A stretch of 64,000 nt of DNA, taken from Pseudomonadota bacterium. Its GTDB lineage: Bacteria; Desulfobacterota; Desulfobacteria; Desulfobacterales; RPRI01. Below, one piece after another: positions 14,686 through 44,234 of the stretch. The notes beneath the pieces were generated by a model that worked only from the letters and a program-made list of their open reading frames with translations, did no database searches and had not been told where the DNA came from. Where the stretch lies: positions 128,001 through 192,000 of the forward strand of contig JBDRRF010000079.1 in assembly GCA_043825875.1 (NCBI GenBank), in the 5' to 3' direction. A program made the translations under genes and the position numbers. Within the stretch, counting starts at the first letter, position 1. Every line of letters begins with the position of its first letter.

Positions 14686-16435
14686 GAGACTGTGTCATAA
14701 TTAAACATATAATTTGCTCTTTGACAATGAAATAATAGAAAAAACAAAAAAAGCGAAAAAAGTATTTTACATTGTCATATCAATATGATAGGGTCTTTTT
14801 TAAAGGAGAAGTGATATGGCATATAGATATGGCGACCGCTATCAGATGGATTTAATGCCACAGTGCATAGAAGATTATGTAGCCGAAAGCAATCCGGTCA
14901 GAGCATACGATGCTTTTATTGAAGTTTTGGATTTACATCAACTGGGAATTAATATTGACCCGGTTAAAGTAGGAAATTCCGAATACGATCCTAAAAGCAT
15001 GCTAAAGCTTTTGGTTTACGGTTATTCTTATGGAGTAAAGAGTTCTCGAAAGCTGGAGAGGGAATGTCATCACAATATAGCATTTATCTGGCTAATGGGT
15101 GGCTTGAAACCAGACCATAAGACAATAGCTGAATTTCGTCGCCGGAATAAGAAAATACTAAAGGGGGTATTGCGCCAATGCGCTCAGTTGTGCATTAAAC
15201 TGGATTTGATTGCAGGCAACGTTTTATTTGTTGATGGTACCAAGATTAGAGCGAATGCGGGTCGGGATCAGTTTCATGACCAAACCTATTATGAAAAGCT
15301 TTTGATTAGTATCAACGGTCGTATTGAACAATTATTAGCGGATTGTGAAAGTACCGATCAGGCTGAGTCTAACTCTTCCTCTTATATAGCTATGAAAGAG
15401 GAATTATCTAATAAAAGAAACCTGAAAGAAAGAGTCAGGGAAGCCCTTGTTTCATTCGAATCAGATACACGGAAGCGGATTAATAAGACCGATGCCGATT
15501 GTGCTTTGATGCATAGTATCCAAGGCAGTCATGCGAGCTACAATATTCAGAGTGTTGTAGATGACAAACACGGCCTTATTGTTCATGCAGAAGCTGTCCG
15601 CGATGCTAACGAAGCGAAGCAGTTTGCCAAACAGATCAATCAGGCTAATGAGCTGTTGGAGAAACCCTGCCAAGTAGCCTGTGCCGATGCCGGATATTCG
15701 GATGTAACTGAATTAGAAGAGATTGACCAAAAGGATATTAAGGTAATTGTTCCTTCCCAGCGGCAGGCGCTGCACAAGGCGGAAAATCCTTTCGGTAAGA
15801 ATCATTTTGTCTATGATCGAAGTCAGGATTGCTACATATGCCCTGAAGGGCACAGATTACTTTATAGCCACACCGATAAAAAAAAAGGGGGGAGGCTATA
15901 CCGGATGGAGGATAAAAAGTTTTGCCATAGCTGCCAACATAACGGTAAGTGTACTAAATCCGAAAGGGGGCGTAGTGTAATCCGGTTGCGTAATGAGGAA
16001 GTAAAGCTAAAGCTGGAGGCACAATACGAAGAGGAGGAATCTCAAAAGATTTACGCACGACGCAAAACAAGAGTTGAACATCCCTTCGGGCACATTAAAC
16101 GAAATCTCAAAACCGATGCTTTTCATTTACGAGGGATAGATGGAGTTCAGGCCGAAACTTCACTTTTAGGTACCTGTTTCAATCTTGCCAGGATGATTAC
16201 GATCTTTGGTGTTGGTAAGTTGATAGGTAAGCTGATCGGACTAAATATGTTAAAGGTTTGCTACTAAAGATGAACTTACATTGCTACGAGGGCAATTATT
16301 GTCGCAAAGCGTACTAAAAACAACTCAAGAACATCTGATATTTTCTTGGGTTTGAATTTTCGCTACTTTCTAATATTTTTTTGTCAAAGAACGATAGAAT
16401 TTGTATTGAAAAAAATACTATTATGACACAGTCTC
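14686..16435 (+). mobile_element. IS1182-family insertion sequence
   Basis: Perfect 15-bp TIRs GAGACTGTGTCATAA / TTATGACACAGTCTC; TTC target duplication; single transposase. Confidence 0.92.
14816..16267 (+). CDS. IS1182-family DDE transposase
   Basis: YDPKSMLKLLVYGY..SSRKLE, PDHKTIAEFR, VDGTKIRANA, ADAGY, Cys-rich insert and RVEHPFGHIK motifs. Confidence 0.93.
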   Translation: MAYRYGDRYQMDLMPQCIEDYVAESNPVRAYDAFIEVLDLHQLGINIDPVKVGNSEYDPKSMLKLLVYGYSYGVKSSRKLERECHHNIAFIWLMGGLKPDHKTIAEFRRRNKKILKGVLRQCAQLCIKLDLIAGNVLFVDGTKIRANAGRDQFHDQTYYEKLLISINGRIEQLLADCESTDQAESNSSSYIAMKEELSNKRNLKERVREALVSFESDTRKRINKTDADCALMHSIQGSHASYNIQSVVDDKHGLIVHAEAVRDANEAKQFAKQINQANELLEKPCQVACADAGYSDVTELEEIDQKDIKVIVPSQRQALHKAENPFGKNHFVYDRSQDCYICPEGHRLLYSHTDKKKGGRLYRMEDKKFCHSCQHNGKCTKSERGRSVIRLRNEEVKLKLEAQYEEEESQKIYARRKTRVEHPFGHIKRNLKTDAFHLRGIDGVQAETSLLGTCFNLARMITIFGVGKLIGKLIGLNMLKVCY

Positions 16436-16680: not shown

Positions 16681-18630
16681 TTATTCCGGTTTTTTCATAG
16701 GAAAAAGTTTTGCTATTATAAAAAGCATTATCAAAGTCACAAGTCCAAGCACAGCATAAAGCCCCCATGGTCTGTTGCTAAACAATTGATCAATGGTTTT
16801 TTCCCAGCTTCTCGGTTTAAACTGTTCCATACCGGCCATCTGTATTTTATTGGGAAGGTGTCCAAGAAGATCCGACTGAACCATCGAAAGATCATAATCA
16901 GGAGCCTGTGTATCGGGATTGCCACCGTAAAGCAGATAAACCCCTTTTTCCTGCGCTATAAAATTGATGGAAGGTGCCTCATAACTTGCTGTAATCCGAT
17001 GTATTTTTATCGGCTGATTATCTCCATGGAAAATATTGACCCGAAGCCGGTTCCGGTCATCAGGGTATGCAGATAGATTTATTGTAAATACGCTATCACC
17101 GGTATCATAATTTTGCCATTTCAGTTTCTTCCAATGATTCCAGCCCATATTGCCCGGTTTTGGAATCTCAAGTAGTACTTCCCGTTTAAAAATTCCTGAA
17201 GAATGCAAACTAAGATTTGACCAGAGTGAAGAGGTCTGTGGAAGATGTATGGTTAGTGTGGTAAGGTTTTTTTCAGGATCATATTCTGATTGTGAAAAAG
17301 CAGAAAGATCCACTTTTTTATTTTCTTTTTTTGCGAAAAAAAACGGTGTCTGGATATCGTCTTTTACCAGCCGGATACCGGATCTGTTTTTTTCAAGGCT
17401 TGCCGCCATATCAAGAACAAGGCTGTAATAACCGGGTTTAAGAACATCGATTTTTGATTTCCATGCAAAACCATTGTCATCAAAAGGGCCTCCCTTGATT
17501 CCATATTTTTCAACAAGGTTTTCAGGGCGAAGATTTTTATTTATCTCAGGATTTGAAAATGAAATCGTATGATCAACGGGCCTTTTTCTTTCTCTTGGGA
17601 ATTGTGATATCTTCGCATGTTTCCCTGTGCCGCTTTTTAAAATATACATGCCTTTTGTGTCTGCCAAAAAAACAATGCGCGGCAATCTTACCTTTACTTT
17701 TAAATCCGAAACATCTCCTATATAAGCTCCATTCGGATCAAGCCTTACTATTAGACTCTTACCAGACCATGTTCTTTCAACATCAAAGGAAAGTCTTTGC
17801 CTGTCTTTTGTAACACTGGAAATTCTGCCATTTAAAATCCTTGAAAACTTTTGTTCTCCATTTTCAATTTTATCTGTTCCGATCTGCCACACGCCTTGAA
17901 ACTGGGCTTGTGTTGAAATATTAACAGAGCGAATAAAAATTCCCGAACCCGGAAGTACTGTTTTGACAAAGGTTATACCGTTGGTTTCGGATTTTTCATA
18001 AACGGGCGTAATTATATCTTCAATATAGTCTTTGCCGTACCTTTCTCCTGAAAGAAATACTTCCATAACAGGAGTAAATTTATTTTCATACTTTTTATCA
18101 AATCCTTTGAAATGGACTCTTATTTTCTGATACACATTTTTATCAATTTGCATTTCGGCACGTGATTGGTTGTTCGCTTTAAAAAGCACCTGATTTTTTT
18201 TCAATGACACCCATCCATTGTCACAAAACCCATCAACATCCACCCTGCTGACAAAACTATCATCTGCTATTTCAACATGAATGAGATCTGAGCTTACCTC
18301 CTGTTCCGTTTTTCCTTCCCAGATATAATCTCCATCTTTTCCAAAACTCATTTCCATCGGTGCCAGTTTAATACGGGTGGGTCCGACAGGCTCGCGCCAA
18401 TACAGTTCAAATGAACGCAAATGTCCGTCCGGCCCCGTTAATTCAAGATCAAGACCGCCTGCTAATGTTTTTACATAAAGTTCGGGCGGAAGAACCGCTT
18501 CCACAATACCGGGTTCTGCTATATTCAAATGTGCCTTTGCCAGCCACTCGTTGTTTCCTGCATAAAGAGATGTAACAAGAGATAACCACAAGATTAAGAA
18601 CAAATTGAATTGTAAAAGTTTATGTTTCAT
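16681..18630 (-). CDS. DUF3999-like exported protein with C-terminal membrane anchor
   Basis: Signal peptide; HGDNQPI and LYGGNP..APDYDL motifs; C-terminal TM helix; overlaps the upstream gene. Confidence 0.6.
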   Translation of the reverse strand: MKHKLLQFNLFLILWLSLVTSLYAGNNEWLAKAHLNIAEPGIVEAVLPPELYVKTLAGGLDLELTGPDGHLRSFELYWREPVGPTRIKLAPMEMSFGKDGDYIWEGKTEQEVSSDLIHVEIADDSFVSRVDVDGFCDNGWVSLKKNQVLFKANNQSRAEMQIDKNVYQKIRVHFKGFDKKYENKFTPVMEVFLSGERYGKDYIEDIITPVYEKSETNGITFVKTVLPGSGIFIRSVNISTQAQFQGVWQIGTDKIENGEQKFSRILNGRISSVTKDRQRLSFDVERTWSGKSLIVRLDPNGAYIGDVSDLKVKVRLPRIVFLADTKGMYILKSGTGKHAKISQFPRERKRPVDHTISFSNPEINKNLRPENLVEKYGIKGGPFDDNGFAWKSKIDVLKPGYYSLVLDMAASLEKNRSGIRLVKDDIQTPFFFAKKENKKVDLSAFSQSEYDPEKNLTTLTIHLPQTSSLWSNLSLHSSGIFKREVLLEIPKPGNMGWNHWKKLKWQNYDTGDSVFTINLSAYPDDRNRLRVNIFHGDNQPIKIHRITASYEAPSINFIAQEKGVYLLYGGNPDTQAPDYDLSMVQSDLLGHLPNKIQMAGMEQFKPRSWEKTIDQLFSNRPWGLYAVLGLVTLIMLFIIAKLFPMKKPE

Positions 18631-21600
18631 TTTGTTTTTCCCCTGATAAAAATCGCTGATAAAGAAAAGAGACTAAAATCAATACAACGGCAAGGCCCAC
18701 AAATGCACCTACTCTGTATAGTTGGCCCAGTTTCCAGAGATCCAGTGTAAATATCTTAACGGATGTCCCAACAAGAAGTATAATAGCAGCCCAGCGGACT
18801 TTTATATTATCCCATTTGATGCCAACTATCATAAGACCTATTGAAAAAACCAGCCAGCCTATGCTGTATGCAAGCTGCATTGAAAGACTTCCATGTGTCA
18901 GCATGGAAAAGGGCCTTCCTTTTAACGCAAAGGCACTGGCTATTTCTATGTTTAATACGGTAAATGTGACAACCGCCAATATAACACCCAAAAAAGCTCT
19001 GGGTTGAAAATCCGTTATGGGCCAGAGCTGTTTCCAATTTCTTAATGTAAGATAGACAAGGCTTGAAATCACAAAAAGGAAAAGCAATGATGGGAGATTT
19101 AAAAGAGGCGTCATATCTCCGAATTCTGCCCTGAAGTAGTAAGGGAAAAACAGCGTTTTGATAATGCCCAACAGGATCAGGATTACTCCTGCAAATCTGA
19201 ACGGCCGGTCAAGCCGCTTCGGCCAGAGCAGAAGTCCAAGCCCGTATATGAACCAGCCTACAGCAGATGCCAAAGCTTTGGGCGCTGTGCTGGAATGAAA
19301 CAGCTCGAAGGAAAGACCAGGTTGTAAAATGGTGGCAGAAGATAATTTTAATAACATAAACCCGCTTACTAAAAAAATTGCCAGAAAAGTATTCTTCAAA
19401 CCGAACCCGGATTCTTTCAAAGGCTCTTTTATAAAAAGATAATACATTATTGCCATAAGCATAAGATATGAAATAAAGGACGGATTGAAAAACGGCCTCA
19501 TATGACCGATTGACTTCGGCAGTAATGCCGGAAGAATAATAATCACAAATGCTCCGGCAAATGACAGGCATAATCCCACAATGCACATAATCGTTGGCAA
19601 AGCACGCCTGCGCCACAATATAGCTCCAAATGCCGTCCAGGTGAGGGCATAGCATATCCAGTGCAAATAGTTTTTGCCGGGAAACACCATAAATTTTGTG
19701 CCGTGTGTTGCGAAAAGATCGGATATAATCAGGTTTACCAGATAAAAACCAGTACCGACTGCAAGCCACAGGAAATATTCGGGAAGATCCAGCTTTTTCC
19801 CTATTGTTCTATCAGGATATGATGACAGTTTGACTGCTGCACCCAGAGCAATAATGGATGCGGCTACCGATATCACAGCGCTGTTAATAACAGACATACT
19901 ATCTGTAACTTTTAACAAAGGAATGTTTATAAAAAGAATAATCAACCCTGCTGGTGCCAGGAAAGAAGCTGTCCATCTTAAGCCCGGATGTTCTATTCTC
20001 CTGTTAAGCCAGAGCAATGCAGCCGCTTCAAATACAAATGCTATTCCTATCCAGCCGTGATTCAAAACAATAACAGGAAGGGCGGAAATATAAAAAAGCA
20101 AAGCCCCGCCATGAAAAGCCAAAATAGTGTTTCGTTCTTCTTTGTCTTTCAATCTTTTTATCAAAATACTTACAACCGGAAGCTTGAACAATGCAAGTAC
20201 AAGAGGAGTCCATTTCATCAGAGGATCGTTCCAATACAAAGAAGTTGAATAAAGAACAAATACCCCCTGGAACACCTCAAACAAAGCCCAGGCATTAAAT
20301 ATCTGCTTCCATTTTTCTATTTCTTTAAAACCCAAAAACGGAACAATCAGTGCACAACAAAATAATCCCGAAGACCATGCAACAGCTGCAAACAAAAGGT
20401 TCATATCCTTGTTTGGGCTCATTACCCATATAGCCTGAGTAAAAACAGAAGCCAGAAGAGCCAATACGGCCGGTGGCTGAAACATGATTCTTTTGCTTAA
20501 AAATAAAGTCAGCACAAGAAAACATACCATTGTCAACATACCCGGATGGGGAAAATATGGATGTTTTACTATAAATGCAGCTCCCAGAAGAACAAATGCT
20601 CCAACCGCAGGTGTGGCAACAATCCATTGTTCGAGATTTTTTGCTTTTAAATCTATGGATTCTTTTTCAGGCAAAACCCTTTCAGGGAAAGAATCGGCTA
20701 AAATGTCGGGCAGTTTTTTTATAAAAACAAAAATTGCTACAGACAACAATATTCCTGAAAAAAGGATAAAGCCGAAAAAGCCGAAACCCAACACGCCTTG
20801 CGGAAAATTAAAAACCCAGTAAAGACCGCAGGCAATAAACAGTAATACAAGCAGGCATATCTGAATAAAAGCTTTTACCAAAAGACTTATGCCTATTCCA
20901 AGTAATTGCAGGCAAAGCAGCATGGGCCAGAACCAGAAGGATATAACCGGCGCCCTGAAAAAGCCGATCATACTTATAGCTACAATGGAAACCGGAAAAA
21001 GCCTGAACCAGTGTATTATCTTTTTATCAAACCCGTATTTTTTTATTAACAATATTGGGCCTAATCCTCCGGCAACACCATACAGAAGAAACAAAACTAA
21101 ATTAAAGGAAAAATATTGGGGGTTAAATCTCAATACTGCCCAGATGAAAGCAATGATAAATGTGACAACTGAAAACGGGATTACATCTGCATACCACCCG
21201 CGATTTCTATGCGCTAATATGATTGCCCCGGAGACTGATGCCGTTAATATAAAAAGCGCACCCCAGCCGGTTTTTACTATAAGCACAGCAGCCATGATCA
21301 GGGCAGAAATATACAAAAGTCTTCCCATCCATCGCGTTGTCTGATTTTCTTCCGGATCAATATTTGACCATCCCAGAAAGACAGAAAACAAGGCAAGATT
21401 TGCCACCCATACGCAAGCAATGGTATGGCCCGGCAGTTTATAATAATATGAAATTATGCCAAGAGACAATGTAATAAGGGTTCCGGCGCATGCAGTCAAA
21501 AGCAGCATCTGTGATTTCAGATATCTTACAACCTGATAAACCCCGATGTTTACTATTGCCAGATAGGCAAATAGCATCACGATATCACCACTTCCGGTGC

Positions 21601-22441
21601 TAACAATAATAGGGGTTATATTAGCACCGATTACACCCATAACCGATATGGCAACTCCCTTATAATACACCGCCAAAACAAAAGCAGTTGCCGAAACCAG
21701 TGTAAGAAAAGCAAATCCTATCGGTTTTGTAATAAATTGATAATAAATCGCAGCATATATAATTGCATAAAGTACACCTATGCCGCATGAAACCAGCGTA
21801 TACCGCATAACCGTATACTTTTCATTTTTGATCCAATGAGATACAATAATCATTGCGATACCGGCTAAAGCCCCGGCAGCAAGGCGCAAACTTAAAGGAA
21901 TCAGATTATTATCTATAGAGTATTTTACGAAAAAACCGGCAGCAATAAATAATGAAAGCCCGCCAAGCCATGCCGATATTTTCTTCCCTGTAAATTGCTC
22001 CCAATCAACATTTTCCTTAAATTTTTTCCAGCGGACCGCCCAGTCGGATTTGGTTTTTTCCGGTTTTTTTCCCGATTCCGCTTTTTGATCTTCTTCAACC
22101 GCAATCGATTCATCGGTTTGTTGCACAGGAAGTGAGGGAGGTAATTTTAAGACGTGTGTTTGCGTGATTGGTTCATATTTCTTCTCAGGCTTGATTTCAG
22201 GTGGTATGACTACCGAAGGTTTTTCTTGGGCTTCAGTCTTTTGTTTCTGTTCAACTTTTTCTTCCGGTTCTGCGTACTTTTCTTTTTGTCCTTCTGCTCT
22301 ATCGGTATCAGGATGACGCAATTCCAGAATCTTTTTTTCAAGCATATCAATACGAAAATTTAGCGTATCCCGAATTTTGTTAAGCTTTGAATAGAAAAAG
22401 ATAACTATTCCAACAAAAAGCAGAAAAATATAAAAATTCAT
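18620..22441 (-). CDS. DUF2339 family large multi-pass membrane protein
   Basis: WEQFTG..AWLGG..FFVKYS N-terminal block; C-terminal KIFTLDL..LYRVGAFVGL..SFLYQR block. Confidence 0.85.
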   Translation of the reverse strand: MNFYIFLLFVGIVIFFYSKLNKIRDTLNFRIDMLEKKILELRHPDTDRAEGQKEKYAEPEEKVEQKQKTEAQEKPSVVIPPEIKPEKKYEPITQTHVLKLPPSLPVQQTDESIAVEEDQKAESGKKPEKTKSDWAVRWKKFKENVDWEQFTGKKISAWLGGLSLFIAAGFFVKYSIDNNLIPLSLRLAAGALAGIAMIIVSHWIKNEKYTVMRYTLVSCGIGVLYAIIYAAIYYQFITKPIGFAFLTLVSATAFVLAVYYKGVAISVMGVIGANITPIIVSTGSGDIVMLFAYLAIVNIGVYQVVRYLKSQMLLLTACAGTLITLSLGIISYYYKLPGHTIACVWVANLALFSVFLGWSNIDPEENQTTRWMGRLLYISALIMAAVLIVKTGWGALFILTASVSGAIILAHRNRGWYADVIPFSVVTFIIAFIWAVLRFNPQYFSFNLVLFLLYGVAGGLGPILLIKKYGFDKKIIHWFRLFPVSIVAISMIGFFRAPVISFWFWPMLLCLQLLGIGISLLVKAFIQICLLVLLFIACGLYWVFNFPQGVLGFGFFGFILFSGILLSVAIFVFIKKLPDILADSFPERVLPEKESIDLKAKNLEQWIVATPAVGAFVLLGAAFIVKHPYFPHPGMLTMVCFLVLTLFLSKRIMFQPPAVLALLASVFTQAIWVMSPNKDMNLLFAAVAWSSGLFCCALIVPFLGFKEIEKWKQIFNAWALFEVFQGVFVLYSTSLYWNDPLMKWTPLVLALFKLPVVSILIKRLKDKEERNTILAFHGGALLFYISALPVIVLNHGWIGIAFVFEAAALLWLNRRIEHPGLRWTASFLAPAGLIILFINIPLLKVTDSMSVINSAVISVAASIIALGAAVKLSSYPDRTIGKKLDLPEYFLWLAVGTGFYLVNLIISDLFATHGTKFMVFPGKNYLHWICYALTWTAFGAILWRRRALPTIMCIVGLCLSFAGAFVIIILPALLPKSIGHMRPFFNPSFISYLMLMAIMYYLFIKEPLKESGFGLKNTFLAIFLVSGFMLLKLSSATILQPGLSFELFHSSTAPKALASAVGWFIYGLGLLLWPKRLDRPFRFAGVILILLGIIKTLFFPYYFRAEFGDMTPLLNLPSLLFLFVISSLVYLTLRNWKQLWPITDFQPRAFLGVILAVVTFTVLNIEIASAFALKGRPFSMLTHGSLSMQLAYSIGWLVFSIGLMIVGIKWDNIKVRWAAIILLVGTSVKIFTLDLWKLGQLYRVGAFVGLAVVLILVSFLYQRFLSGEKQNET

Positions 22442-26671: not shown

Positions 26672-26981
26672 AGTGAACAGCGTGCAGACTTCCGGCCGGT
26701 GTCTCATTGCGAGAGAGCTTGGAGAACCTTTGTAGATGAGAAAGCAAAAGACAGCCATTAGAGCCGGTGCGCTCATCGACTTTGCCTTGAAATGGAAATC
26801 CATAAACTGGAAATATGCAATGAGTCAGGTCAGAAGGCTGCAAGTACCTATCGCAAAGGCTGTTAAGGAAAGCAGGTGGAATAAAACTAAATCACTACAA
26901 TATCTGTTAACCCGCTCTCTCTACGCCAAGTTACTGGCTGTGAAGCGAGTGACCTCCAACAAGGGGAAAAAGACTCCCGGC
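26672..26981 (+). mobile_element. group II intron remnant (N-terminal RVT_N part of the intron-encoded RT)
   Basis: WKSINW..VRRLQ..IAKA..LQYLLTRS..AKLLAVKRVTSNKGKKTPG; no YADD core follows. Confidence 0.85.
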
Positions 26982-26996
26982 TACCAGGTGAATCTC

Positions 26997-27737
26997 ATGA
27001 ATCTTACAAGAACATTGATACTATTGTGCGCAATCAGTCTGCTAACTGCTTGCGCAACACGTGCTCCCCAAAAAACTCAATGGATTGAAGAAGCATTACT
27101 GCATGATGGTCGTATTATTCATGTAACTAGAGCAATAAAAACAGGTCTGAATTTTGCCATAATTAGATTACCCGACACAAACGGTGTGCCAAAATTTTAT
27201 TCCGTCGAAACACAGAACCCAAATACAGGTGAAGCTGTTTCGTGGGACAGTGAAGACAGTGAAGCACGTCCAATATTCATAGATTTTGATGGAACAATAA
27301 CATATTTAGTCGTTTATGTACCTGGGTTTGACAATACAGAGAAAAAATACGGATGTATTTTTCCACCGTATCTTTTTTTACGACATGACCGAGGTAATAA
27401 GTGGGTTAGAGTTAATCCAAAAGAGGCACCAGAATTCATCAAATATGCTAATTTGTCGTTTGCGTTAATGAAATATCAAATAACTTTAATGCCTAATATG
27501 GAAATTATGCAAGAGGATGAGCGTGAAAGAATTTTAAAAGTACCGGAAGAAAAAAGAGCTGGTTATCAAACAGTTGCAAAAATCAGGCATGAAAACTTGG
27601 AGAAAGAAAGAGAAGGGTACCTTTTTCAGATTGATATTCCACGTAGCATTTCGGATCTGAAGACAAAAAGAAAAATTTTCAGCGGAAATCGAAGATTTAT
27701 GCCTAATAGATGCAAGCAATTTCCTGATGATATGTAG
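26997..27737 (+). CDS. hypothetical lipoprotein (gene-cassette-like)
   Basis: AGGTG SD-like site, signal peptide with lipobox LTAC, WIEEALLHDGR motif; followed by an attC-like site. Confidence 0.75.
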   Translation: MNLTRTLILLCAISLLTACATRAPQKTQWIEEALLHDGRIIHVTRAIKTGLNFAIIRLPDTNGVPKFYSVETQNPNTGEAVSWDSEDSEARPIFIDFDGTITYLVVYVPGFDNTEKKYGCIFPPYLFLRHDRGNKWVRVNPKEAPEFIKYANLSFALMKYQITLMPNMEIMQEDERERILKVPEEKRAGYQTVAKIRHENLEKEREGYLFQIDIPRSISDLKTKRKIFSGNRRFMPNRCKQFPDDM

Positions 27738-27882: not shown

Positions 27883-28175
27883 AAATTATGGAAATATTCA
27901 TACCAATCTTATTTGGCATTTGTGGCACTGTAATATGGAAATTATGGGAATGGCCAGGATTGATATCGCTATTTGCAATAATGACAGGGGAAAATTTATG
28001 GAAAGTATTTATCTATTAAACTTGCTGGAAATTATTTAAGCTCACAGCTTTATACCTCAGAATTTAGAAAAATTGTGTTAAGTTAATTAAACATTCACCG
28101 CTGCAAACAACGGGGAATATTCACGTACTTTTTCCGTAGATATAATTTAACCCATGATCAGGAGGTTTTGTCTTT

Positions 28176-29270
28176 ATGAAATGCTTTGTGTATTTGTCCA
28201 GAAAGCTATGTTTAGCTGTTGTGTTTTGTTTCGGGTTGAACTTGTCAGCCGGATTGGCGGCTGAGCAAGGAACAGGTGAAGGGGTTCCCAGCGAAGTGTC
28301 AATAAGCACGAATAATTCTCCAAAGATCCTGTTCGAGGAATTATTTTTTGATTTTGGAAAGGTTTCCCAAAATACGCTGCTTGAACATATATTTGTATTT
28401 AAGAATATCGGCACCGGAGTTTTGCACATTTATAATGTGAAAGCGGGCTGAGCCTGTACAGCAGGCCTGGTCTCTGCCAGAGAGATTCCCCCGGGAGGGG
28501 AAGGAAAAATAAAGCTTAACTTTAAAACAAGCAACAAGTCAGGTAAAAGGACCCAGACGGTTAGAGTCGCCACGGATGATCCTGAAAATGCAAGCATCCA
28601 GCTTAAGATAAGTGCAGAAGTCGAGATAAGGCTGGAGGTAAAACCGGACAGGATAAATTTCGGCCGGATAAAGAAAGGGACAGAACCTTCAGCCCAATAT
28701 ATATCACTTAATGGAGAGGACAAAAATACTACCGAAATCCTCTCTGTATCTTCCAGCAACAAAGATATAAAAGCAGAAATAACTCTTTCCGATCCCGCAG
28801 GCAGGCGTCAAATCCAGCGTGTTAAAGTTTCTGTACTGTCCGGTATAAAAGTCGGTAGATTCAGAGATAACATCACACTTAAAACCAATCATGAAAAAAT
28901 GGATGTTCTAAGCGTATATGTATATGGAGAAGTTATCGGTAATATATCTGTAATTCCGAATTATATCTCCTTTGGCATGTTCAAAAGGGAGGAGAAATAT
29001 GAAAGATCCATAAGACTGAAGTCTGCTCCGAATACGACTTTCAATATCCTGGATGTAAAAACTACGCCCTATGTTAAGGCCGAAGTGTCGACCATTAAGG
29101 AGGGTGAGGAATATATGGTTCAGGTTTCAATGGATGAAAATTTTAAGGGTGATTTTTTGAGGGGAAAAGTACTTATAATCACTGACGAACCGGATCAGGC
29201 CGAGATTGAGGTTAATATTTTCGGGAGGGTTTTTTCACAGCAACCCATAGATATGCAAAAAACTAAGTAG
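28176..29270 (+). CDS. DUF1573-domain exported protein with in-frame UGA (probable selenoprotein, U-x-C), 364 aa
   Basis: FDFGKV..HIFVFKNIG..VKAG-UGA-ACT..IPPGGEGKI; frame stays open after the UGA at 28449 and joins the tracked ORF 28899-29270. Confidence 0.8.
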
Positions 29271-29412
29271 TGTCCGTCCATAAACGGCATCTTGTGACAC
29301 ATATCTGCGTTCTCGCGTTTTTGAAATACTCGACGTAAGCCCATTACGCCTGCGTTTTCAAAAACGCTGCGGCCGTGATCTGAGCCGCAATCTACCATTT
29401 CTGGACGGACAC
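29270..29412. mobile_element. 143-bp MITE-like element, family B
   Basis: TIRs GTGTCCGTCCATAAA / TTTCTGGACGGACAC; 6-bp TSD TAAGTA (29264-29269, 29413-29418). Confidence 0.88.
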
Positions 29413-29541
29413 TAAGTAAATTTTTTCCGGAGCGTTTTACAGACGCAGATCGGATAGATTGCAGACGGTAAATATCGTAATTGAAATATCAGAGCACTTT
29501 GCGCCAAGACATTTATGCCTGGCGCAAAGTGAGCAGATTAT

Positions 29542-32311: not shown

Positions 32312-33418
32312 ATGGATTCTTTTCACTGGGGAGCACATTTTGTAACTGGATTGACAGAAGTTGATGAACAACACCATCATCTTGTCGATATCATTAATCA
32401 GTTTAGCAGTCTGCTGGCAAAAAATGTAATACATGCCGGGGATGTAGATCGTCTATATAATCAGTTAGCCGATTACGCTGTATACCATTTCCAGGGAGAA
32501 GAAAAATTGATGTCGGAAGTCAAGTTGGATGCCCTTCACTTGAATCACCATATTGATGTGCATAAAGGCTTCCTGGATGACGTTACATCAATCTATTCCA
32601 GTATCTCTATAGATAACCTTGATCAGGCCAGCACTTTTCTGAAATTTCTCATACATTGGCTTGCCTATCATATTCTTGGTGAAGATCAGGATATGGCAAG
32701 GCAGATCAAGGCTGTACAATCTGGCATGAGTCCGCATGAAGCATACGAAAAACTGGAACAGGAAAGAGATAGCGCTACGGCACCACTGCTCGAAGCATTG
32801 AATGGTTTGTTCGAGCAAGTGTCGATACGAAACAAAGAGTTAAAACAACTGAACGAGTCGCTTGAAGAAAAAGTTGCGTTACGCACCAAAGAACTATCTG
32901 AGGCCAACCTGCATCTTGAAGAATTGTCTTTAACGGATGTTTTGACCGGTCTCCCCAATCGCCGTCATGCCATGCGGAGTCTATCCAGCCTTTGGGATGA
33001 AGCATTGCAAAATGATTCTTCCTTAGTTTGTATGATGATAGATGCGGATCATTTTAAAGAAGTAAATGATGCTTATGGCCATGATGCCGGGGATCAAGTA
33101 TTAATAGAATTGGCTAAAACACTCCGGCATTCCTTGCGAAATGATGATGTTGTTAGTCGCCTCGGTGGTGATGAGTTTCTTATTATCTGTCCTAATACAG
33201 ATATAGAAGGTGGAATGCATATCGCAGAAATGACCCGTAAAACCGTATCGGAACTTCGAGTACCAACTGGGGGTAAACCTTGGCATGGCAGCATTAGTGT
33301 TGGCGTTTCTTCCCGATTGCCTGACATGAAAAGCTATGAAGAGTTAATTAAGGAGGCTGATAATGGCGTATATGCTGCTAAAGAAGCTGGGAAAAATTGC
33401 GTAAAAACGGTAGGCTGA
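32312..33418 (+). CDS. bacteriohemerythrin-GGDEF diguanylate cyclase
   Basis: VDEQH, HFQGEE, HIDVH and WLAYHILGED hemerythrin ligands; DADHFK.VND.YGH and RLGGDEF motifs. Confidence 0.93.
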   Translation: MDSFHWGAHFVTGLTEVDEQHHHLVDIINQFSSLLAKNVIHAGDVDRLYNQLADYAVYHFQGEEKLMSEVKLDALHLNHHIDVHKGFLDDVTSIYSSISIDNLDQASTFLKFLIHWLAYHILGEDQDMARQIKAVQSGMSPHEAYEKLEQERDSATAPLLEALNGLFEQVSIRNKELKQLNESLEEKVALRTKELSEANLHLEELSLTDVLTGLPNRRHAMRSLSSLWDEALQNDSSLVCMMIDADHFKEVNDAYGHDAGDQVLIELAKTLRHSLRNDDVVSRLGGDEFLIICPNTDIEGGMHIAEMTRKTVSELRVPTGGKPWHGSISVGVSSRLPDMKSYEELIKEADNGVYAAKEAGKNCVKTVG

Positions 33419-39389: not shown

Positions 39390-40025
39390 GTGGATAAAAA
39401 GGGCCAAAGAAAGTTTTCACAAGGGTCTATAATGCTTTTTTCCATAATCGGTCTTGTTGCAGGTCTTTTAATAGGATGGGTGGTTTTCCCAAAACTTCTT
39501 TATTCAAAGAAAACACAACCAGTTGATTTTAATCATGCTATTCATAACGAACAGGTTGATAACGGTTGTGATAGTTGCCATATCTTCAGGGAAGACGGAA
39601 GTTTTGCAGGAGTTCCAAAACTTGCGCAGTGCGCTGATTGCCATCAGGAAGTACAGGGTGACAGCTCTGATGAGAAAATATTTGTTAAAGAATATGTTTT
39701 AGAGGAAAAAGAAGTTCCATGGCTGATTTATTCAAAACAGCCCGACTGTGTTTTCTTCTCCCATGCAGCCCATGTTAAAAAGGCAAAAATGGAGTGCGCC
39801 ATCTGCCATGGGGGCATAGGAGGATCAACAAGTTTAAAACCATATGAACAAAACAGAATAACCGGCTACAGCCGTGATATCTGGGGAAAGAACATTGCCG
39901 GAACCAAGGAAAATTCGTGGGATAGAATGAAGATGGATGATTGCGCAAAGTGTCATGAAAAAGAAACCGGCAGAAGATCAAGCGTTCAAACCGGCAAGGA
40001 GGCCTGCTTTGTGTGCCATAAGTAA
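39390..40025 (+). CDS. qrcA: Qrc complex multiheme cytochrome c subunit
   Basis: N-terminal TM helix, five CxxCH motifs, YSKQPDCVFFSHAAH and TGYSRDIWG. Confidence 0.9.
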   Translation: MDKKGQRKFSQGSIMLFSIIGLVAGLLIGWVVFPKLLYSKKTQPVDFNHAIHNEQVDNGCDSCHIFREDGSFAGVPKLAQCADCHQEVQGDSSDEKIFVKEYVLEEKEVPWLIYSKQPDCVFFSHAAHVKKAKMECAICHGGIGGSTSLKPYEQNRITGYSRDIWGKNIAGTKENSWDRMKMDDCAKCHEKETGRRSSVQTGKEACFVCHK

Positions 40026-40040
40026 TAAGAGGAAAAACTT

Positions 40041-42185
40041 ATGAAAATAGACAGAAGATCTTTCTTGTCGCTTGGAATAGGCGGTGCGGCAGGTATTGCG
40101 CTTTCACCATTGCCATTGAAGCTTATGGATGACAGTGCAATATGGACACAGACATGGCCGTGGACTCCTGTGCCGCCTGATGGTGAAGCAACTTATGTTA
40201 ATTCTGCATGCACTCTTTGCCATGGCGGATGTGGAATTTCCGTCAGAAAGATTAATGGCAGAGCAGTTAAAATAGAAGGAATAGAAGGGCATCCCGTTAA
40301 TGACGGTGGAATTTGTCTTTTAGGACTTTCGGGATTGCAACTTCTCTACGGTCCCACACGCATAGAATCTCCCCTTAAAAGAACCGGTGAAAGAGGATCA
40401 GGAAAATGGAGCGTAATATCCTGGGAAGAGGCTATTTCAGAAGTTGCAGAAAAACTTAAGGCATTAAGAAAAAATAAAGATTCGGGCTCGGTGGCCTGTA
40501 TTTCGGGCACTGACAAAGGTACAGTATCTGCGCTTTTTAAGAAATTTCTTTCGGTATACGGATCTTCTAATTTTATGCGGATGCCATCTGTTTCCGATGC
40601 TTATGAACTTTCAGCTTTTCTTTCTTCAGGACAAAAAGCGGAACTTGCCTTTGATATTGAAAATTCCGATTTTATCTTAAGTTTTGGAAGCGGTCTTATT
40701 GAAGGCTGGGGATCGCCTGTTCGCATGATGCGGGCAAACAGCATTTTACGTAAAGCAGATGCCAAAATAATACAGATTGAACCGCGTCTTTCAAATACTG
40801 CTGCAAAATCAAATAAGTGGATTCCGATTAATCCGGGAACCGAATACGCTTTGGCCCTGGGGCTTGCAAATGTAATTATCTCAAAAACACTATTTAATAT
40901 TAATTTTGTAAAAAGCAATACTTCAGGATTTGCAAAGTTTGCTGCATTTGTTCAGTCTTTTTATTCACCTGACAAGTTGGAAAAAATAACAGGCATTAAA
41001 AAAGAAACCATTGAAACTCTTGCCAAAGATTTTGCCAGTGCTGCAAAACCTTTAGCAGTCTGTGGAAAAGGACAGGGTAAAGAACAGGGATTTTTGGGTG
41101 AAGTTATGGCGGTGCAGGCATTAAATGCGCTTGTTGGAAACATTAACAAAAAAGGAGGCGTTTTTACTGTTTCCGGTCGAAGATATTTTTCATTGCCGGG
41201 TATGGCTAATTACGAAACAAACCTTGCAAACCGTTTTACTGATGACGTTAACTCAGGGAAATATAGCGCTAAAGCGCTTTTTGTTTATGAATCAAACCCG
41301 CTTTACTCACTGCCTGATTCAAATTCTGTAAAGAAAGCTTTTGCCAAAATTCCTTATATTGTCAGTTTTTCATCATTTATGGATGAAACTGCAATGAATT
41401 CGGATTTAATTTTACCTAACCATATCTACCTTGAGCGCTATGAAGATGTTCATGCCACATTGCTCCCAAAACCAGTTATCAGCCTTTGCGTACCTGTTGT
41501 AGATCCTCAGTTTAATACAAAACATACAGGCGATGTTATAATTCAGATAGCAAAGAAAATGGGTTCACCTGTTGCAGATTCTTTTAAATGGAAAAATTAT
41601 GATTCATTTATAGAAGAAGCACTTGGCGATAAATGGGAAGTACTTTCGGAACAAGGATTCTGGGAAGACAGAATAGCTGAACTTTTGACCTTAAAAACGT
41701 CTTCAAAAAAATTTGATTTTACAGCAGGATTTTCAGATATTAAAAGTTTATTTACTTATCCTGATGCCGGGGCCGATCCGGATAAATACCCATTTATTCT
41801 TATACCCTACGATTCTATCAGAATTGCAAACGGCTATATTGGTGATCCGCCTTTTACCGTAAAAACAGTGGAAGATACGGTTCTTTTTGGAAATGATGTA
41901 CTTGTGGAAGTAAATCCGCTGACTGCTAAAGCTTTAGGGCTTACAGAAGGAAGCTATGCAATAATCGAAACTTCCAAAGCAAAGGCAAGAGTAAAAATTC
42001 ATCTGTTTGAAGGAATAATGCCCGGTCTTATAGCTATGCCGAGAGGACTTGGCCATAGTGCATATGACAATTATCTTGCCGGCAAGGGAATTAATGTTAA
42101 TGAACTGATCGGGACACAAAAAGATCCGGCTTCCGGCCTTGATGCAGCTTGGGGTATAAGGGCTGCTCTGAGCAAAGCTGTTTGA
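40041..42185 (+). CDS. qrcB: Qrc complex molybdopterin-oxidoreductase-like subunit
   Basis: Tat motif RRSFL, DDSAIWTQ, CxxCxxxC..C, CISM-family fold; operon context. Confidence 0.9.
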   Translation: MKIDRRSFLSLGIGGAAGIALSPLPLKLMDDSAIWTQTWPWTPVPPDGEATYVNSACTLCHGGCGISVRKINGRAVKIEGIEGHPVNDGGICLLGLSGLQLLYGPTRIESPLKRTGERGSGKWSVISWEEAISEVAEKLKALRKNKDSGSVACISGTDKGTVSALFKKFLSVYGSSNFMRMPSVSDAYELSAFLSSGQKAELAFDIENSDFILSFGSGLIEGWGSPVRMMRANSILRKADAKIIQIEPRLSNTAAKSNKWIPINPGTEYALALGLANVIISKTLFNINFVKSNTSGFAKFAAFVQSFYSPDKLEKITGIKKETIETLAKDFASAAKPLAVCGKGQGKEQGFLGEVMAVQALNALVGNINKKGGVFTVSGRRYFSLPGMANYETNLANRFTDDVNSGKYSAKALFVYESNPLYSLPDSNSVKKAFAKIPYIVSFSSFMDETAMNSDLILPNHIYLERYEDVHATLLPKPVISLCVPVVDPQFNTKHTGDVIIQIAKKMGSPVADSFKWKNYDSFIEEALGDKWEVLSEQGFWEDRIAELLTLKTSSKKFDFTAGFSDIKSLFTYPDAGADPDKYPFILIPYDSIRIANGYIGDPPFTVKTVEDTVLFGNDVLVEVNPLTAKALGLTEGSYAIIETSKAKARVKIHLFEGIMPGLIAMPRGLGHSAYDNYLAGKGINVNELIGTQKDPASGLDAAWGIRAALSKAV

Positions 42186-42198
42186 GAATGAGGTTTGG

Positions 42199-42978
42199 AT
42201 GAAAGAAGAAAAAAGCAGTAAAGATGCTAAAAAATATGGGATGGTAATTGATCTGGATAAATGTACCGGTTGCGGATCATGCATGGTTGCCTGTATGGCT
42301 GAAAATAATGTGTCATTCAAGGAAGATGAATCCAAAAAGCTTGACAGCATTACCTGGATGAGAGTGTACAGGCTTACAAACGGCAAATCATTTCCTGATA
42401 CCGATATCTGTTATCTTCCAAGACCCTGCCAGCATTGCGGAGGAAAAGGAGACCACGGCCATTCGCCCTGTGTTTCCGTTTGTCCTGCAACAGCAACCGA
42501 TTACAACATGGAAACAGGAATTGTAAGCCAGATTTATACAAGATGTTTCGGATGCCGCTACTGCATGGCTGCATGTCCTTATCATGCAAGGTATTTCAAC
42601 TGGTGGGACCCGGTCTGGCCTAAAGGCATGGAAAAATACTTAAGCCCTAATGTTTCGGTGCGCATGAGAGGTGTTGTCGAAAAATGCAGCTTTTGTTTCC
42701 ATAGGTATCAGCTTGCAAAAGACAAAGCATATTATGAAGGCCGCAATGAAGTAGCAGAAAGCGAATACCAGACGGCTTGTACGCAGGCATGCCCTGCCGG
42801 TGCTATTACTTTCGGGGATCTTAATAATACCGGTCATGCAGTTTATAAACTTAAGAACAATAAAAACGCCTTCAGGCTCCTTGAAAGACTTCAGACAAAT
42901 CCAAAGGTTTATTATCTTTCAAGTAAAAAATGGGTTAGAGACGCAGGCGATAATTATCTTAATAATGAAAAGAATTAA
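42199..42978 (+). CDS. qrcC: Qrc complex Fe-S subunit
   Basis: DLDKCTGCGSCMVAC, CFGCRYCMAACPY and KCSFC motifs (NrfC/DmsB type). Confidence 0.92.
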   Translation: MKEEKSSKDAKKYGMVIDLDKCTGCGSCMVACMAENNVSFKEDESKKLDSITWMRVYRLTNGKSFPDTDICYLPRPCQHCGGKGDHGHSPCVSVCPATATDYNMETGIVSQIYTRCFGCRYCMAACPYHARYFNWWDPVWPKGMEKYLSPNVSVRMRGVVEKCSFCFHRYQLAKDKAYYEGRNEVAESEYQTACTQACPAGAITFGDLNNTGHAVYKLKNNKNAFRLLERLQTNPKVYYLSSKKWVRDAGDNYLNNEKN

Positions 42979-42995
42979 TTGAGGATAGGTAATCA

Positions 42996-44228
42996 ATGGA
43001 TTCAAATATTATATCCGGGGAACTAAAGCGTTGTCCTAAATGGCAGTTTGCTTTGTGGATAGGGGCAGCAAGTGCTGTGCTGTTATGGGGTGTTTACGCC
43101 ATGCTGCTTTGCTGGATTAAAGGTCTTAACCAGACCAATATGAATGACGCATATGGTTTTGCGTTATGGATCTGGGCCGATCTTGCTATCATAGCGCTTG
43201 GAGGCGGGGCATTTTTTACAGGTTTTTTAAGATATATATTAGGAAAAGATGAACTTAAAAATATTGTAAACTATGCGGTTATTATCGGTTTTATCTGCTA
43301 CAGTTCAGCACTTATTATACTGGGTATTGATGTTGGGCAGCCAATAAGAGGCTGGTTTATTTTCTGGCATGCCAATGTGCATTCAATGCTTACCGAAGTG
43401 GCATTTTGTCTTACCTGCTATCTTTTTGTTTTGATTATAGAATATATTCCAATCATACTTGAAAACCGACGTATAGATAAAATTCCCTTTTATCACAATC
43501 TTGGCCATAACATGCATTCAATGATGGCCGTATTTGCTGCAACAGGAGTTTTTCTGTCATTTTTTCATCAGGGATCTTTGGGTGGCGTATCCGGCGTTTT
43601 GTTCGGGCGCCCGTTTGGTTACAGAGAGGGAGTATTTATCTGGCCCTGGACATTTTTCCTCTTCACATGGTCGGCTGCCGCCTGCGGACCCTGTTTTACA
43701 ATTCTTATTACAAAAATCACTGAAGCACTTACAGGCAAAAGACTTGTAAAGGACAATGTAATAGAACTTCTTGCAAAGATTTCCGGCTGGATGTTAGGAA
43801 CTTACATAATAGCGAAAATAATAGATACTCTGTATTGGGCAATGGTTACGCTTCCTGCATCAGGATTTACCCTTATGGATTTTTATTCAAATAATCCTTT
43901 TTATGGCATATGGATACTTGTTCTTGAAATAGCAGTTTGCGGAATTCTTCCTGCGCTGATACTGATATCTGAAAAAGGGCGAAAAAACAAATCTGCACTT
44001 ATAATCGCTGCAATTCTTGCGGTGTTGGGGGTTTGCATAAACCGCTGGGTACTTGTTCTTCAGGTAATGGCCGCTCCGGTTTTAACATTTGAAACATGGC
44101 AAATGTATATTCCGAGCTGGCAGGAGGTTGCGACTACGATTCTGCCACTTGCTTACGGTGTGCTTATTATATCTTTTTCATACCGTTACCTGCCGGTATT
44201 TCCGCAGGAAAAGGAGTTGAATCCTTAA
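42996..44228 (+). CDS. qrcD: Qrc complex NrfD/PsrC-family membrane subunit
   Basis: GLNQTNM, ALGGGAFFTG, DVGQPIR, HSMLTEV and FFHQGSLGG motifs. Confidence 0.92.
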   Translation: MDSNIISGELKRCPKWQFALWIGAASAVLLWGVYAMLLCWIKGLNQTNMNDAYGFALWIWADLAIIALGGGAFFTGFLRYILGKDELKNIVNYAVIIGFICYSSALIILGIDVGQPIRGWFIFWHANVHSMLTEVAFCLTCYLFVLIIEYIPIILENRRIDKIPFYHNLGHNMHSMMAVFAATGVFLSFFHQGSLGGVSGVLFGRPFGYREGVFIWPWTFFLFTWSAAACGPCFTILITKITEALTGKRLVKDNVIELLAKISGWMLGTYIIAKIIDTLYWAMVTLPASGFTLMDFYSNNPFYGIWILVLEIAVCGILPALILISEKGRKNKSALIIAAILAVLGVCINRWVLVLQVMAAPVLTFETWQMYIPSWQEVATTILPLAYGVLIISFSYRYLPVFPQEKELNP

Positions 44229-44234
44229 CTATTT

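Follow-up and report, generated by a model that had tools for sequence, protein, structure and literature searches.

A 64,000-nucleotide stretch of a genome from the order Desulfobacterales (assembly GCA_043825875.1, contig JBDRRF010000079.1, positions 128,001 to 192,000; hereafter the window, with positions counted from its first letter) contains two short open reading frames (ORFs) on the forward strand, at 28176-28451 (91 aa) and 28899-29270 (123 aa). Do they belong to one gene interrupted by a recoded UGA, and if so, what might its protein do? The division follows from genetic code table 11, and the same two fragments are recorded in the public protein collection (NCBI, Logan). A first-pass annotation had read them as one hidden selenoprotein gene of the DUF1573 family, with selenocysteine (Sec) at a conserved Cys. 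The comparisons reported here make it very likely that the split gene encodes a single exported-type selenoprotein and that the two public records are fragments of it. We predict with high confidence that Sec is inserted at codon 92, and we consider the chance slightly better than even that the 364-residue OS_HP2/DUF1573 selenoprotein, predicted to be exported, acts as a periplasmic thiol-disulfide exchange protein.

The interrupted frame and its family

Positions 28176-29270 (+) form a single frame of 364 codons whose lone internal stop is the TGA at 28449-28451 (+), residue 92, in the context VKAG-U-ACTAG, followed by IPPGGEGKI. A Shine-Dalgarno-like AGGAGG lies at 28160-28165 (+), 10 nt 5' of the ATG. 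When the UGA is read through, the Pfam domain DUF1573 (PF07610) matches residues 53-149, across the UGA, with 97.5 bits against a cut-off of 26.1 (E 4.8e-28). Both the single frame and the DUF1573 assignment proposed earlier are thus borne out. The upstream frame reads alike in an orthologue of 72% identity. Relatives of the protein are filed publicly as N-terminally truncated proteins of 258-302 aa, and the named ones carry the label Desulfobacterium sp. A scan for promoters and terminators stayed at chance level, with three promoter-like sites against 4.5 in shuffled sequences. No RNA data set was listed as containing the gene, and no contig over it came from the two RNA runs that belong to this study, which says nothing on its expression.

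The protein also passes the NCBIfam model NF041425 (OS_HP2 family (seleno)protein) by a narrow margin, with 101.5 bits against a cut-off of 100. With 94.2 bits the 72% orthologue fails to reach that value, and on these scores the three-domain branch to which the window protein belongs lies at the edge of the model. OS_HP2 was one of six new selenoprotein families predicted computationally, with two genes, in the available part of Zhang and Gladyshev (2007, PMC1976440). DUF1573 with the motif UGC is listed as a selenoprotein family in the accessible text of PMC9312934 and PMC13188914. From the order of the table and the hidden Markov model match we infer that the OS_HP2 of 2007 and the DUF1573/UGC entry are the same family; the main text of BSepDB holds no occurrence of DUF1573, OS_HP2 or NF041425. 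Since the family has been catalogued since 2007, our result is an annotation correction for this genome rather than a discovery, and no specialist should be surprised by it. Recoding of the UGA is supported, while the word "hidden" in the earlier reading applies to this gene's annotation and not to a new family.

To compare the codon at the interrupted site, we drew 30 homologous loci from 61 related genomes and 29 further ones from 401 genomes of the phylum, and added those of 76 metagenome contigs, of one named genome (a single distant locus, L053) and of the genome of the window itself. Altogether 137 loci were examined. Two of them do not align over the site, and another 23 rows were removed because they were duplicated or short, leaving 115 distinct sites, window included. 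The codon is TGA in 86 of these, TGC in 23 and TGT in six, and in none is it TGG. The following two residues, Ala93 and Cys94 (28452-28457, +), behave differently: position 94 is Cys in all 115 sites, and position 93 is Gly in 112. Among the 86 TGA sites Ala is unique to the window, Gly being present in the other 85, as also in the 72% orthologue. The U-x-C spacing named by the first-pass annotation is therefore present, but here it takes the form U-A-C and not the usual form with Gly.

A quick tree built from 111 of the 115 rows requires 11 changes between Sec and Cys, at least six of them forced by the starred branches. The window copy falls within a clade of 45 rows (43 Sec, two Cys; support 96), beside the copy of a congener and then that of a genome of another order. 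Of 40 genomes selected for a TGA copy, 39 have a detected selA, and the exception is 61% complete; of 18 selected for a Cys copy, 15 have it. The other three of these 18, which are 97-100% complete, contain four DUF1573 copies, all of them stop-free.

The genome of the window, with an assembly completeness of 99.8%, contains selA (602.8 bits), selB (378.3), selD (381.4) and tRNA-Sec (75.6), all above their cut-offs, so that the whole set selA/selB/selC/selD is present; its selD itself contains one TGA. A tRNA with the anticodon TCA was also detected by ARAGORN. This tRNA-Sec is the only one with that anticodon, and the tRNA-Trp reads CCA. Sequencing error, nonsense mutation and decoding as Trp are accordingly explanations of negligible probability for the TGA. 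Such a reading finds support in the public split annotation only, and it is refuted by the recurrence of TGA at the same column across families, with no Trp codon at any site, as well as by the tRNA complement. In addition, a Logan contig with a depth of 26.3 is identical to positions 27900-29325 (0 differences); it possibly derives from the same sample as the window, and so it excludes a consensus or assembly slip at the TGA without being independent.

Other genes with an in-frame TGA were sought in the same genome. A codon-usage ranking of read-throughs returned 3,850 candidates and was noisy (index 153 for the window site, 63 for selD and 10 for a paralogue on contig C80); it served only for picking 11 further sites, chosen by eye and scanned against protein families with the TGA read through. 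Three of them score above their family cut-offs: SelD, an IscA/HesB-Se protein and a further OS_HP2 gene. The best matches of the remaining fragments, several of them incomplete, all fall below the cut-off: HdrA (three), MvhD/VhuD, formate dehydrogenase, HmcF/TmcB-like proteins (two) and one substrate-binding protein. The second OS_HP2/DUF1573 gene (G000:C80:7523-8221; L169, L021) has two domains, the motif U-G-C and 151 bits on NF041425; a perfect 7-bp stem with a 6-nt loop stands behind its TGA, and a HAD hydrolase gene lies downstream of it. The substrate-binding protein (G000:C31:118618-119595; L168) is of the ABC type, SsuA-like, with a weak match to SaoX, an in-frame TGA and a stable hairpin downstream, and may be considered a candidate exported selenoprotein. 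The two HmcF/TmcB-like iron-sulfur proteins (G000:C83:17583-18698, L166; G000:C8:30581-31747, L176) carry the TGA in the same motif, each with a G-containing hairpin loop behind it.

Stem-loops behind the UGA and the state of the window copy

A bacterial selenocysteine insertion sequence (SECIS) was expected behind the UGA, and the first-pass annotation had pointed to two hairpins there. The element that is conserved in the family, a stem-loop of the kind expected 16-37 nt after the UGA in bacterial selenoproteins, is neither of them. It lies at 28465-28482 (+), where a 7-bp stem (28465-28471 paired with 28476-28482) encloses a 4-nt loop (28472-28475). Scored in the sites that share the codon spacing of the window, this stem keeps on average 6.65 of seven pairs in 63 TGA sites against 2.9 of seven in 20 Cys sites, and RNAalifold recovers the helix unprompted. 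In 58 distinct rows 95.1% of the cells are paired and six of the seven pairs vary on both sides. None of 500 shuffles matches four of the five covariation measures (76 of 500 match the fifth) and controls slid along the alignment reach 17-55%, figures to be read with the proviso that related rows are not independent. One of the two patterns used in the metagenome scan was the peptide encoded by the stem itself, which biases that set. Among the unbiased loci taken from genomes, at least six pairs are found in 16 of 17 TGA sites against one of 12 Cys sites. The two-domain branch has a separate register, with 5.8 pairs in 18 TGA sites and 2.5 in six Cys sites.

Two Cys forms nested in the Sec clade of the window differ in what they retain. 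One (L098:3763) keeps six of the seven stem pairs and is likely a recent Sec-to-Cys change; the other (L058:2233-2280), from a genome without selA, has three of seven.

The first of the hairpins proposed earlier, GCCTG/CAGGC (28452-28467, +), does exist, at -8.3 kcal/mol, and abuts the UGA. It has a counterpart in many homologues, largely dictated by the codons for Gly-Cys-Thr-Ala-Ala, with 5.25 of six pairs in three-domain TGA forms against 3.95 of six in Cys forms. This adjacency and its weak covariation (the percentage of paired cells was attained by 39 of 500 shuffles) led us to reject it as the main SelB site. The second, GCAG..CTGC (28461-28477), is weak (-3.3 kcal/mol), with no pair reaching a probability of 0.1 in the fold of 28460-28500, and was also discarded as the SECIS. 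The private replacements G93A and A97G of the window protein change both sides of the proximal pair 28453/28465 from G-C to C-G, a state found in one of 63 TGA homologues. This swap could be compensatory, or the palindrome could have templated the mutation; that the two arms were simply inverted was rejected by inspection.

Some features of the stem-loops speak against recoding as read here. The window copy retains five of the seven conserved pairs (28467-28471 with 28476-28480), whereas 60 of 63 TGA sites have six or seven. The published bacterial consensus, in the available text of PMC13188914, places a G in the first two loop positions and sets an energy of -7.5 kcal/mol or lower, and the same text grants that some SECIS elements lie outside this model. 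Contrary to the consensus, the conserved loop has a G in its first two positions in just six of 62 TGA sites; a G does stand directly behind the loop, on its 3' side, in 60 of 63. In the fold of the window copy an alternative hairpin at 28469-28487 (+), with a 5-nt loop that begins with G, 24 nt after the UGA, is favoured with a pair probability of about 0.8, against 0.15-0.17 for the conserved register. Taken alone it has -6.4 kcal/mol, short of the threshold. By itself, the stretch of 52 nt that begins at the UGA has no better fold than shuffled sequences (z -1.04), and therefore the evidence for a SECIS rests on the homologues. The covarying element of the three-domain branch departs from the loop-G rule, which bears on mRNA recognition by SelB in sulfate reducers.

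These departures could also mean that the window copy descends from a selenoprotein and is now drifting, with poor read-through and mostly a 91-aa stub as product. The private Ala at position 93, the lost stem pairs and the minor share of the conserved register in the fold would fit such a state, as would the presence of the higher-scoring OS_HP2 gene with TGA on contig C80. The 3' end of the gene points in the same direction. A close orthologue (L083, the one of 72% identity) was found in one of 16 congeners searched; it stops 10 codons earlier, and its stop aligns with a sense codon of the window gene. In the window the stop is supplied by a miniature inverted-repeat element (29268-29414, strand not assigned; about 147 bp) with 12-bp terminal inverted repeats, whose first three bases are the TAG of the gene. 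The same 7-mer stands on both flanks (29263-29418), and the genome has eight other copies of at least 120 nt, 78-97% identical.

We consider drift highly improbable all the same. No frameshift or other stop occurs in the 272 codons behind the UGA, G93A and A97G jointly preserve a base pair, and the alternative hairpin has the consensus G-first loop and spacing, though it is below the energy threshold alone. Compared with L083, the part after the UGA has a ratio of nonsynonymous to synonymous substitution rates (dN/dS) of 0.35; for residues 93-241, outside both annotated pieces, the value is 0.33. With 14 outgroups, 13 derived changes fall on the window side and 11 on the L083 side (p 0.84), so there is no rate excess on the window branch. 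By the ratio and the balanced changes, the part behind the UGA is under moderate purifying selection, with no sign of recent decay. Its dN/dS is twice that of the neighbouring tannase-family gene (0.17), which counts against the main reading.

Architecture, predicted function and genomic setting

The recoded gene would encode a protein with a Sec-pathway signal peptide at residues 1 to about 29 (28176-28262, +), judged by eye and from hydropathy. A basic N-region is followed by a hydrophobic core at residues 11-25 (hydropathy 2.21, against at most 1.22 beyond residue 40) and small residues before E30, and the N-termini of homologues are similar. The export claimed earlier is retained as a prediction on the strength of this hydrophobic N-terminus. 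Three immunoglobulin (Ig)-like domains are predicted to follow: domain 1 (residues 49-150; 28320-28625, +), the DUF1573/OS_HP2 domain, a PapD/ASH-like beta-sandwich according to profiles, AlphaFold2 and fold search; and, according to AlphaFold2 and fold search, domain 2 (residues ~151-254; 28626-28937, +) and domain 3 (residues ~255-352; 28938-29231, +), both without Cys. The third is absent from the common two-domain paralogues of 240-270 aa. AlphaFold2 gave an all-beta chain over residues 50-352 from a 14-row alignment (mean predicted local distance difference test, pLDDT, of 85.2) and a pLDDT of 94.9 for domain 1 alone (57 rows). In the model U92-A93-C94 sits in a short break between two strands. 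Residues 92 and 94 are the only Cys or Sec after the predicted signal peptide, and in 57 domain-1 sequences no column is invariant except those of N, G, L and the two C/U positions.

Among the fold matches listed are 2QSV, the best structural match of domain 1 (Z 14.0, root-mean-square deviation 1.5 A over 99 residues; profile match E 2.7e-8), the Ig domains of VesB (Z 12.5) and VesC (Z 12.3), HYDIN, CEP192 and pilus chaperones. A sequence search of the PDB with the single protein gave nothing significant (best E 0.22). CsgC and nDsbD do not appear among the matches listed, which is still compatible with a weak likeness. A thioredoxin fold with C-x-x-C is not what we found: the model is all-beta, the spacing is U-x-C and there is no thioredoxin Pfam match. 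As far as the models go, a fold shared with PapD/ASH-type Ig domains is no indication of function.

These best matches are non-catalytic Ig modules, and they speak for a selenoprotein with a mainly structural role, in which tandem ASH/PapD-like domains would be spacers in the envelope and U-x-C would only cross-link subunits or tether them. The matched 2QSV domain has no Cys at the motif and the number of domains is either two or three. Yet the motif is invariant in a domain that elsewhere falls to about 30% identity, and repeated Cys/Sec switches with a kept SECIS are hard to reconcile with an inert cross-link. A structural role is thus distinctly unlikely.

Given recoding, we regard it as somewhat more probable than otherwise, by analogy, that U92-x-C94 is a redox switch for periplasmic thiol-disulfide exchange. 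Under this proposal SelB with Sec-tRNA would recognise the stem-loop about 14-35 nt after the UGA and insert Sec92. Removal of the signal peptide would leave three tandem PapD/ASH-like Ig domains with U92 and C94 as the sole selenol and thiol groups, which could cycle between the reduced form and a selenenyl-sulfide bond. Disulfides might be passed to or from exported client proteins bound by the Ig domains, and a membrane redox protein, MauE or DsbD/CcdA for instance, might reset the pair. Our working model is CsgC, a CxC protein with an Ig fold, and Sec would be a more reactive yet replaceable form of Cys. A redox role is supported by the invariance of C94, the repeated interchange of Sec and Cys and the adjacency of DUF1573 genes to genes for MauE and other redox proteins.

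This adjacency was examined in two ways. From the loci 1,609 ORFs were clustered, and 25 representatives and 113 of 132 further nearby ORFs were scanned, many flanks being just 1.5 kb long. The order DUF1573-rhodanese-MauE is found in L148 and L153-L156 (distant Cys forms), rhodanese-MauE precedes the Sec copy in L037, and DUF1573-TlpA-DsbD_2-DUF1573 occurs in the Bacteroidota locus L053. Adjacency was then counted over 59 genomes, of which 40 were chosen for a TGA copy and 18 for a Cys copy, the last being that of the window; 45 have MauE. In four of the 45 MauE-bearing genomes, from four families, MauE and a DUF1573 gene are no more than 5 kb apart, where 0.23 would be expected from copy numbers and genome sizes. 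The control with selA gave 0 of 55 (0.2 expected). A rhodanese and a thioredoxin-fold gene are present in all four MauE operons, and DsbD/CcdA in one of the four.

Several observations weigh against thiol-disulfide exchange by the window protein. The MauE count is small and its expectation crude. The MauE-linked DUF1573 copies are the two-domain and distant Cys forms and do not belong to the 45-row clade of the window, where neighbours are varied and neither MauE nor thioredoxin was found among those scanned. The two rhodanese-mauE pairs of the window genome are on other contigs than the window gene, and the commonest context of the two-domain paralogue (priA upstream, HAD hydrolase downstream) is silent on redox. 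Arsenic or cation-efflux genes are present in three of the four MauE operons. Finally, experiments on members of the OS_HP2/DUF1573 family were not found in the literature examined. The immediate flanks of the window gene, an ORF with a reverse transcriptase fragment upstream and a convergent tannase-family gene downstream, are uninformative on function.

The arsenic and efflux genes lead to the main rival, according to which the selenoprotein would be a chaperone or buffer in the periplasm and its U92-x-C94 a site for soft metals or metalloids (As(III), Cd/Zn, Cu(I), Hg). Pairs of selenol and thiol are known to bind metals of this kind. Sec-bearing paralogues with MauE, rhodanese and thioredoxin genes stand together with Acr3 and arsenite methyltransferase in L159 (G038:C27), with an ArsP permease, DGC and a cation-efflux protein in L160 (G045:C30) and with cation efflux, arsenite methyltransferase and TauE in L162 (G060:C35). 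Some members of the window clade are near feoB and a DtxR-FeoA gene (a cluster of six related loci). On the other side, no third ligand is conserved in the 57 domain-1 sequences and no metal transporter is present among the scanned genes of the window. MauE and rhodanese occur in every one of the arsenic and efflux operons. In the distant Cys-form clusters (L053, L148, L153-L156) the neighbours scanned include redox partners and no metal pumps. Metal or metalloid binding is thus possible, though we place it on the unlikely side. The first-pass annotation had left the function as "redox or metal-binding"; the choice between them is still one of inference, with the neighbours of family members tilting it towards thiol-disulfide exchange.

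A broader proposal can be made, which is speculative and in our estimate unlikely as a whole: OS_HP2/DUF1573 would serve the MauE (and DsbD/CcdA) pathway as a soluble partner with an Ig fold in place of the thioredoxin fold, forming a selenium-using periplasmic disulfide relay in anaerobic Desulfobacterota, with a SECIS class that does without the consensus loop G. This would provide a function for a 19-year-old hypothetical selenoprotein family and a second kind of partner for the MauE pathway. Literature joining MauE and DUF1573 was not found in a search outside which most subscription papers lay. The link through neighbours to MauE, rhodanese and DsbD/TlpA makes the function of the family testable with standard E. 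coli dsb assays.

An additional gene recurs near the three-domain form. In 11 loci (L055, L058-L060, L084, L093, L100, L104, L108, L116 and L138) a divergent lipoprotein-like gene of about 170-190 aa, with no Pfam match, lies 0.5-2.2 kb upstream.

The wider setting of the window gene agrees with the accessory region suggested at first, as a transposase, a reverse transcriptase fragment and the miniature repeat are nearby. At the L083 locus the tannase-family gene downstream is syntenic and the upstream genes differ; together with the presence of the orthologue in one congener of 16, this fits the accessory label. The ORF upstream (26736-27737, +; 333 aa) matches RVT_N of group II intron-type reverse transcriptases over its first ~90 residues and continues as lipoprotein-like sequence. 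A reverse transcriptase piece of 80% identity lies on contig C109, and the ORF gives the impression of a gene to which the remains of an intron were joined by chance. The transposase (14816-16267, +), with DUF772 and DDE_Tnp_1_6 domains, is presumably IS1182-like. Elsewhere in the window there are four genes at 39390-44231 (+) for multiheme cytochrome, molybdopterin-type, ferredoxin and membrane subunits, which we take to resemble the Qrc complex of sulfate reducers; a DUF2339 membrane protein of 1273 aa and, after it, a protein of 649 aa with no Pfam or NCBIfam match (16681-22441, -); and a hemerythrin-GGDEF fusion (32312-33418, +).

Comparison with known systems

The closest known system is the OS_HP2 family itself, and we regard the window gene as a well-supported selenoprotein gene of this known family, from the three-domain branch and with a private U-A-C motif. 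It shares with the family the Sec at the first position of C-x-C, the hairpin after the UGA and a score above the NF041425 cut-off. It differs by its three Ig domains, against two in the common Desulfobacterales paralogue; by U-A-C in place of the listed U-G-C, the middle Gly being typical and not required by the model; and by the SECIS of its branch, which has a 4-nt loop and stands one codon further out than the 6-nt loop of the two-domain branch.

In fold, domain 1 corresponds to 2QSV, a Porphyromonas gingivalis protein of unassigned function; the matched domain of 2QSV has no Cys at the place of the motif, unlike the U-x-C of the window protein. None of 2QSV, HYDIN, CEP192 and the VesB Ig domain is known to be a selenoprotein.

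MauE has been described as a DsbB-like oxidase whose CGC active site is needed to replace DsbB, in the available text of the preprint (bioRxiv 10.64898/2026.03.05.709764). It resembles the window protein in its periplasm-facing C-G-C redox motif, which according to the same text is active in a Thermodesulfobacteriota enzyme, and mauE genes adjoin some DUF1573 genes. MauE is a four-helix membrane oxidase for which that source expects a thioredoxin-fold partner, its main text, as far as available, making no mention of DUF1573; and the window gene is near neither mauE of its genome. The thioredoxin-fold oxidoreductases DsbA, MauD and TlpA have C-x-x-C, unlike the all-beta U-x-C protein predicted here.

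CsgC, an Ig-fold CxC protein with a redox potential of -139 mV in the accessible part of PMC3173608, is likewise a periplasmic Ig-like beta-sandwich with an invariant C-x-C near the start of a strand. The likeness may be one of analogy rather than homology, the window domain matching the PapD/ASH type best; CsgC is a single-domain protein of curli assembly with no Sec, whereas the window protein would present its U-x-C on the first of three domains.

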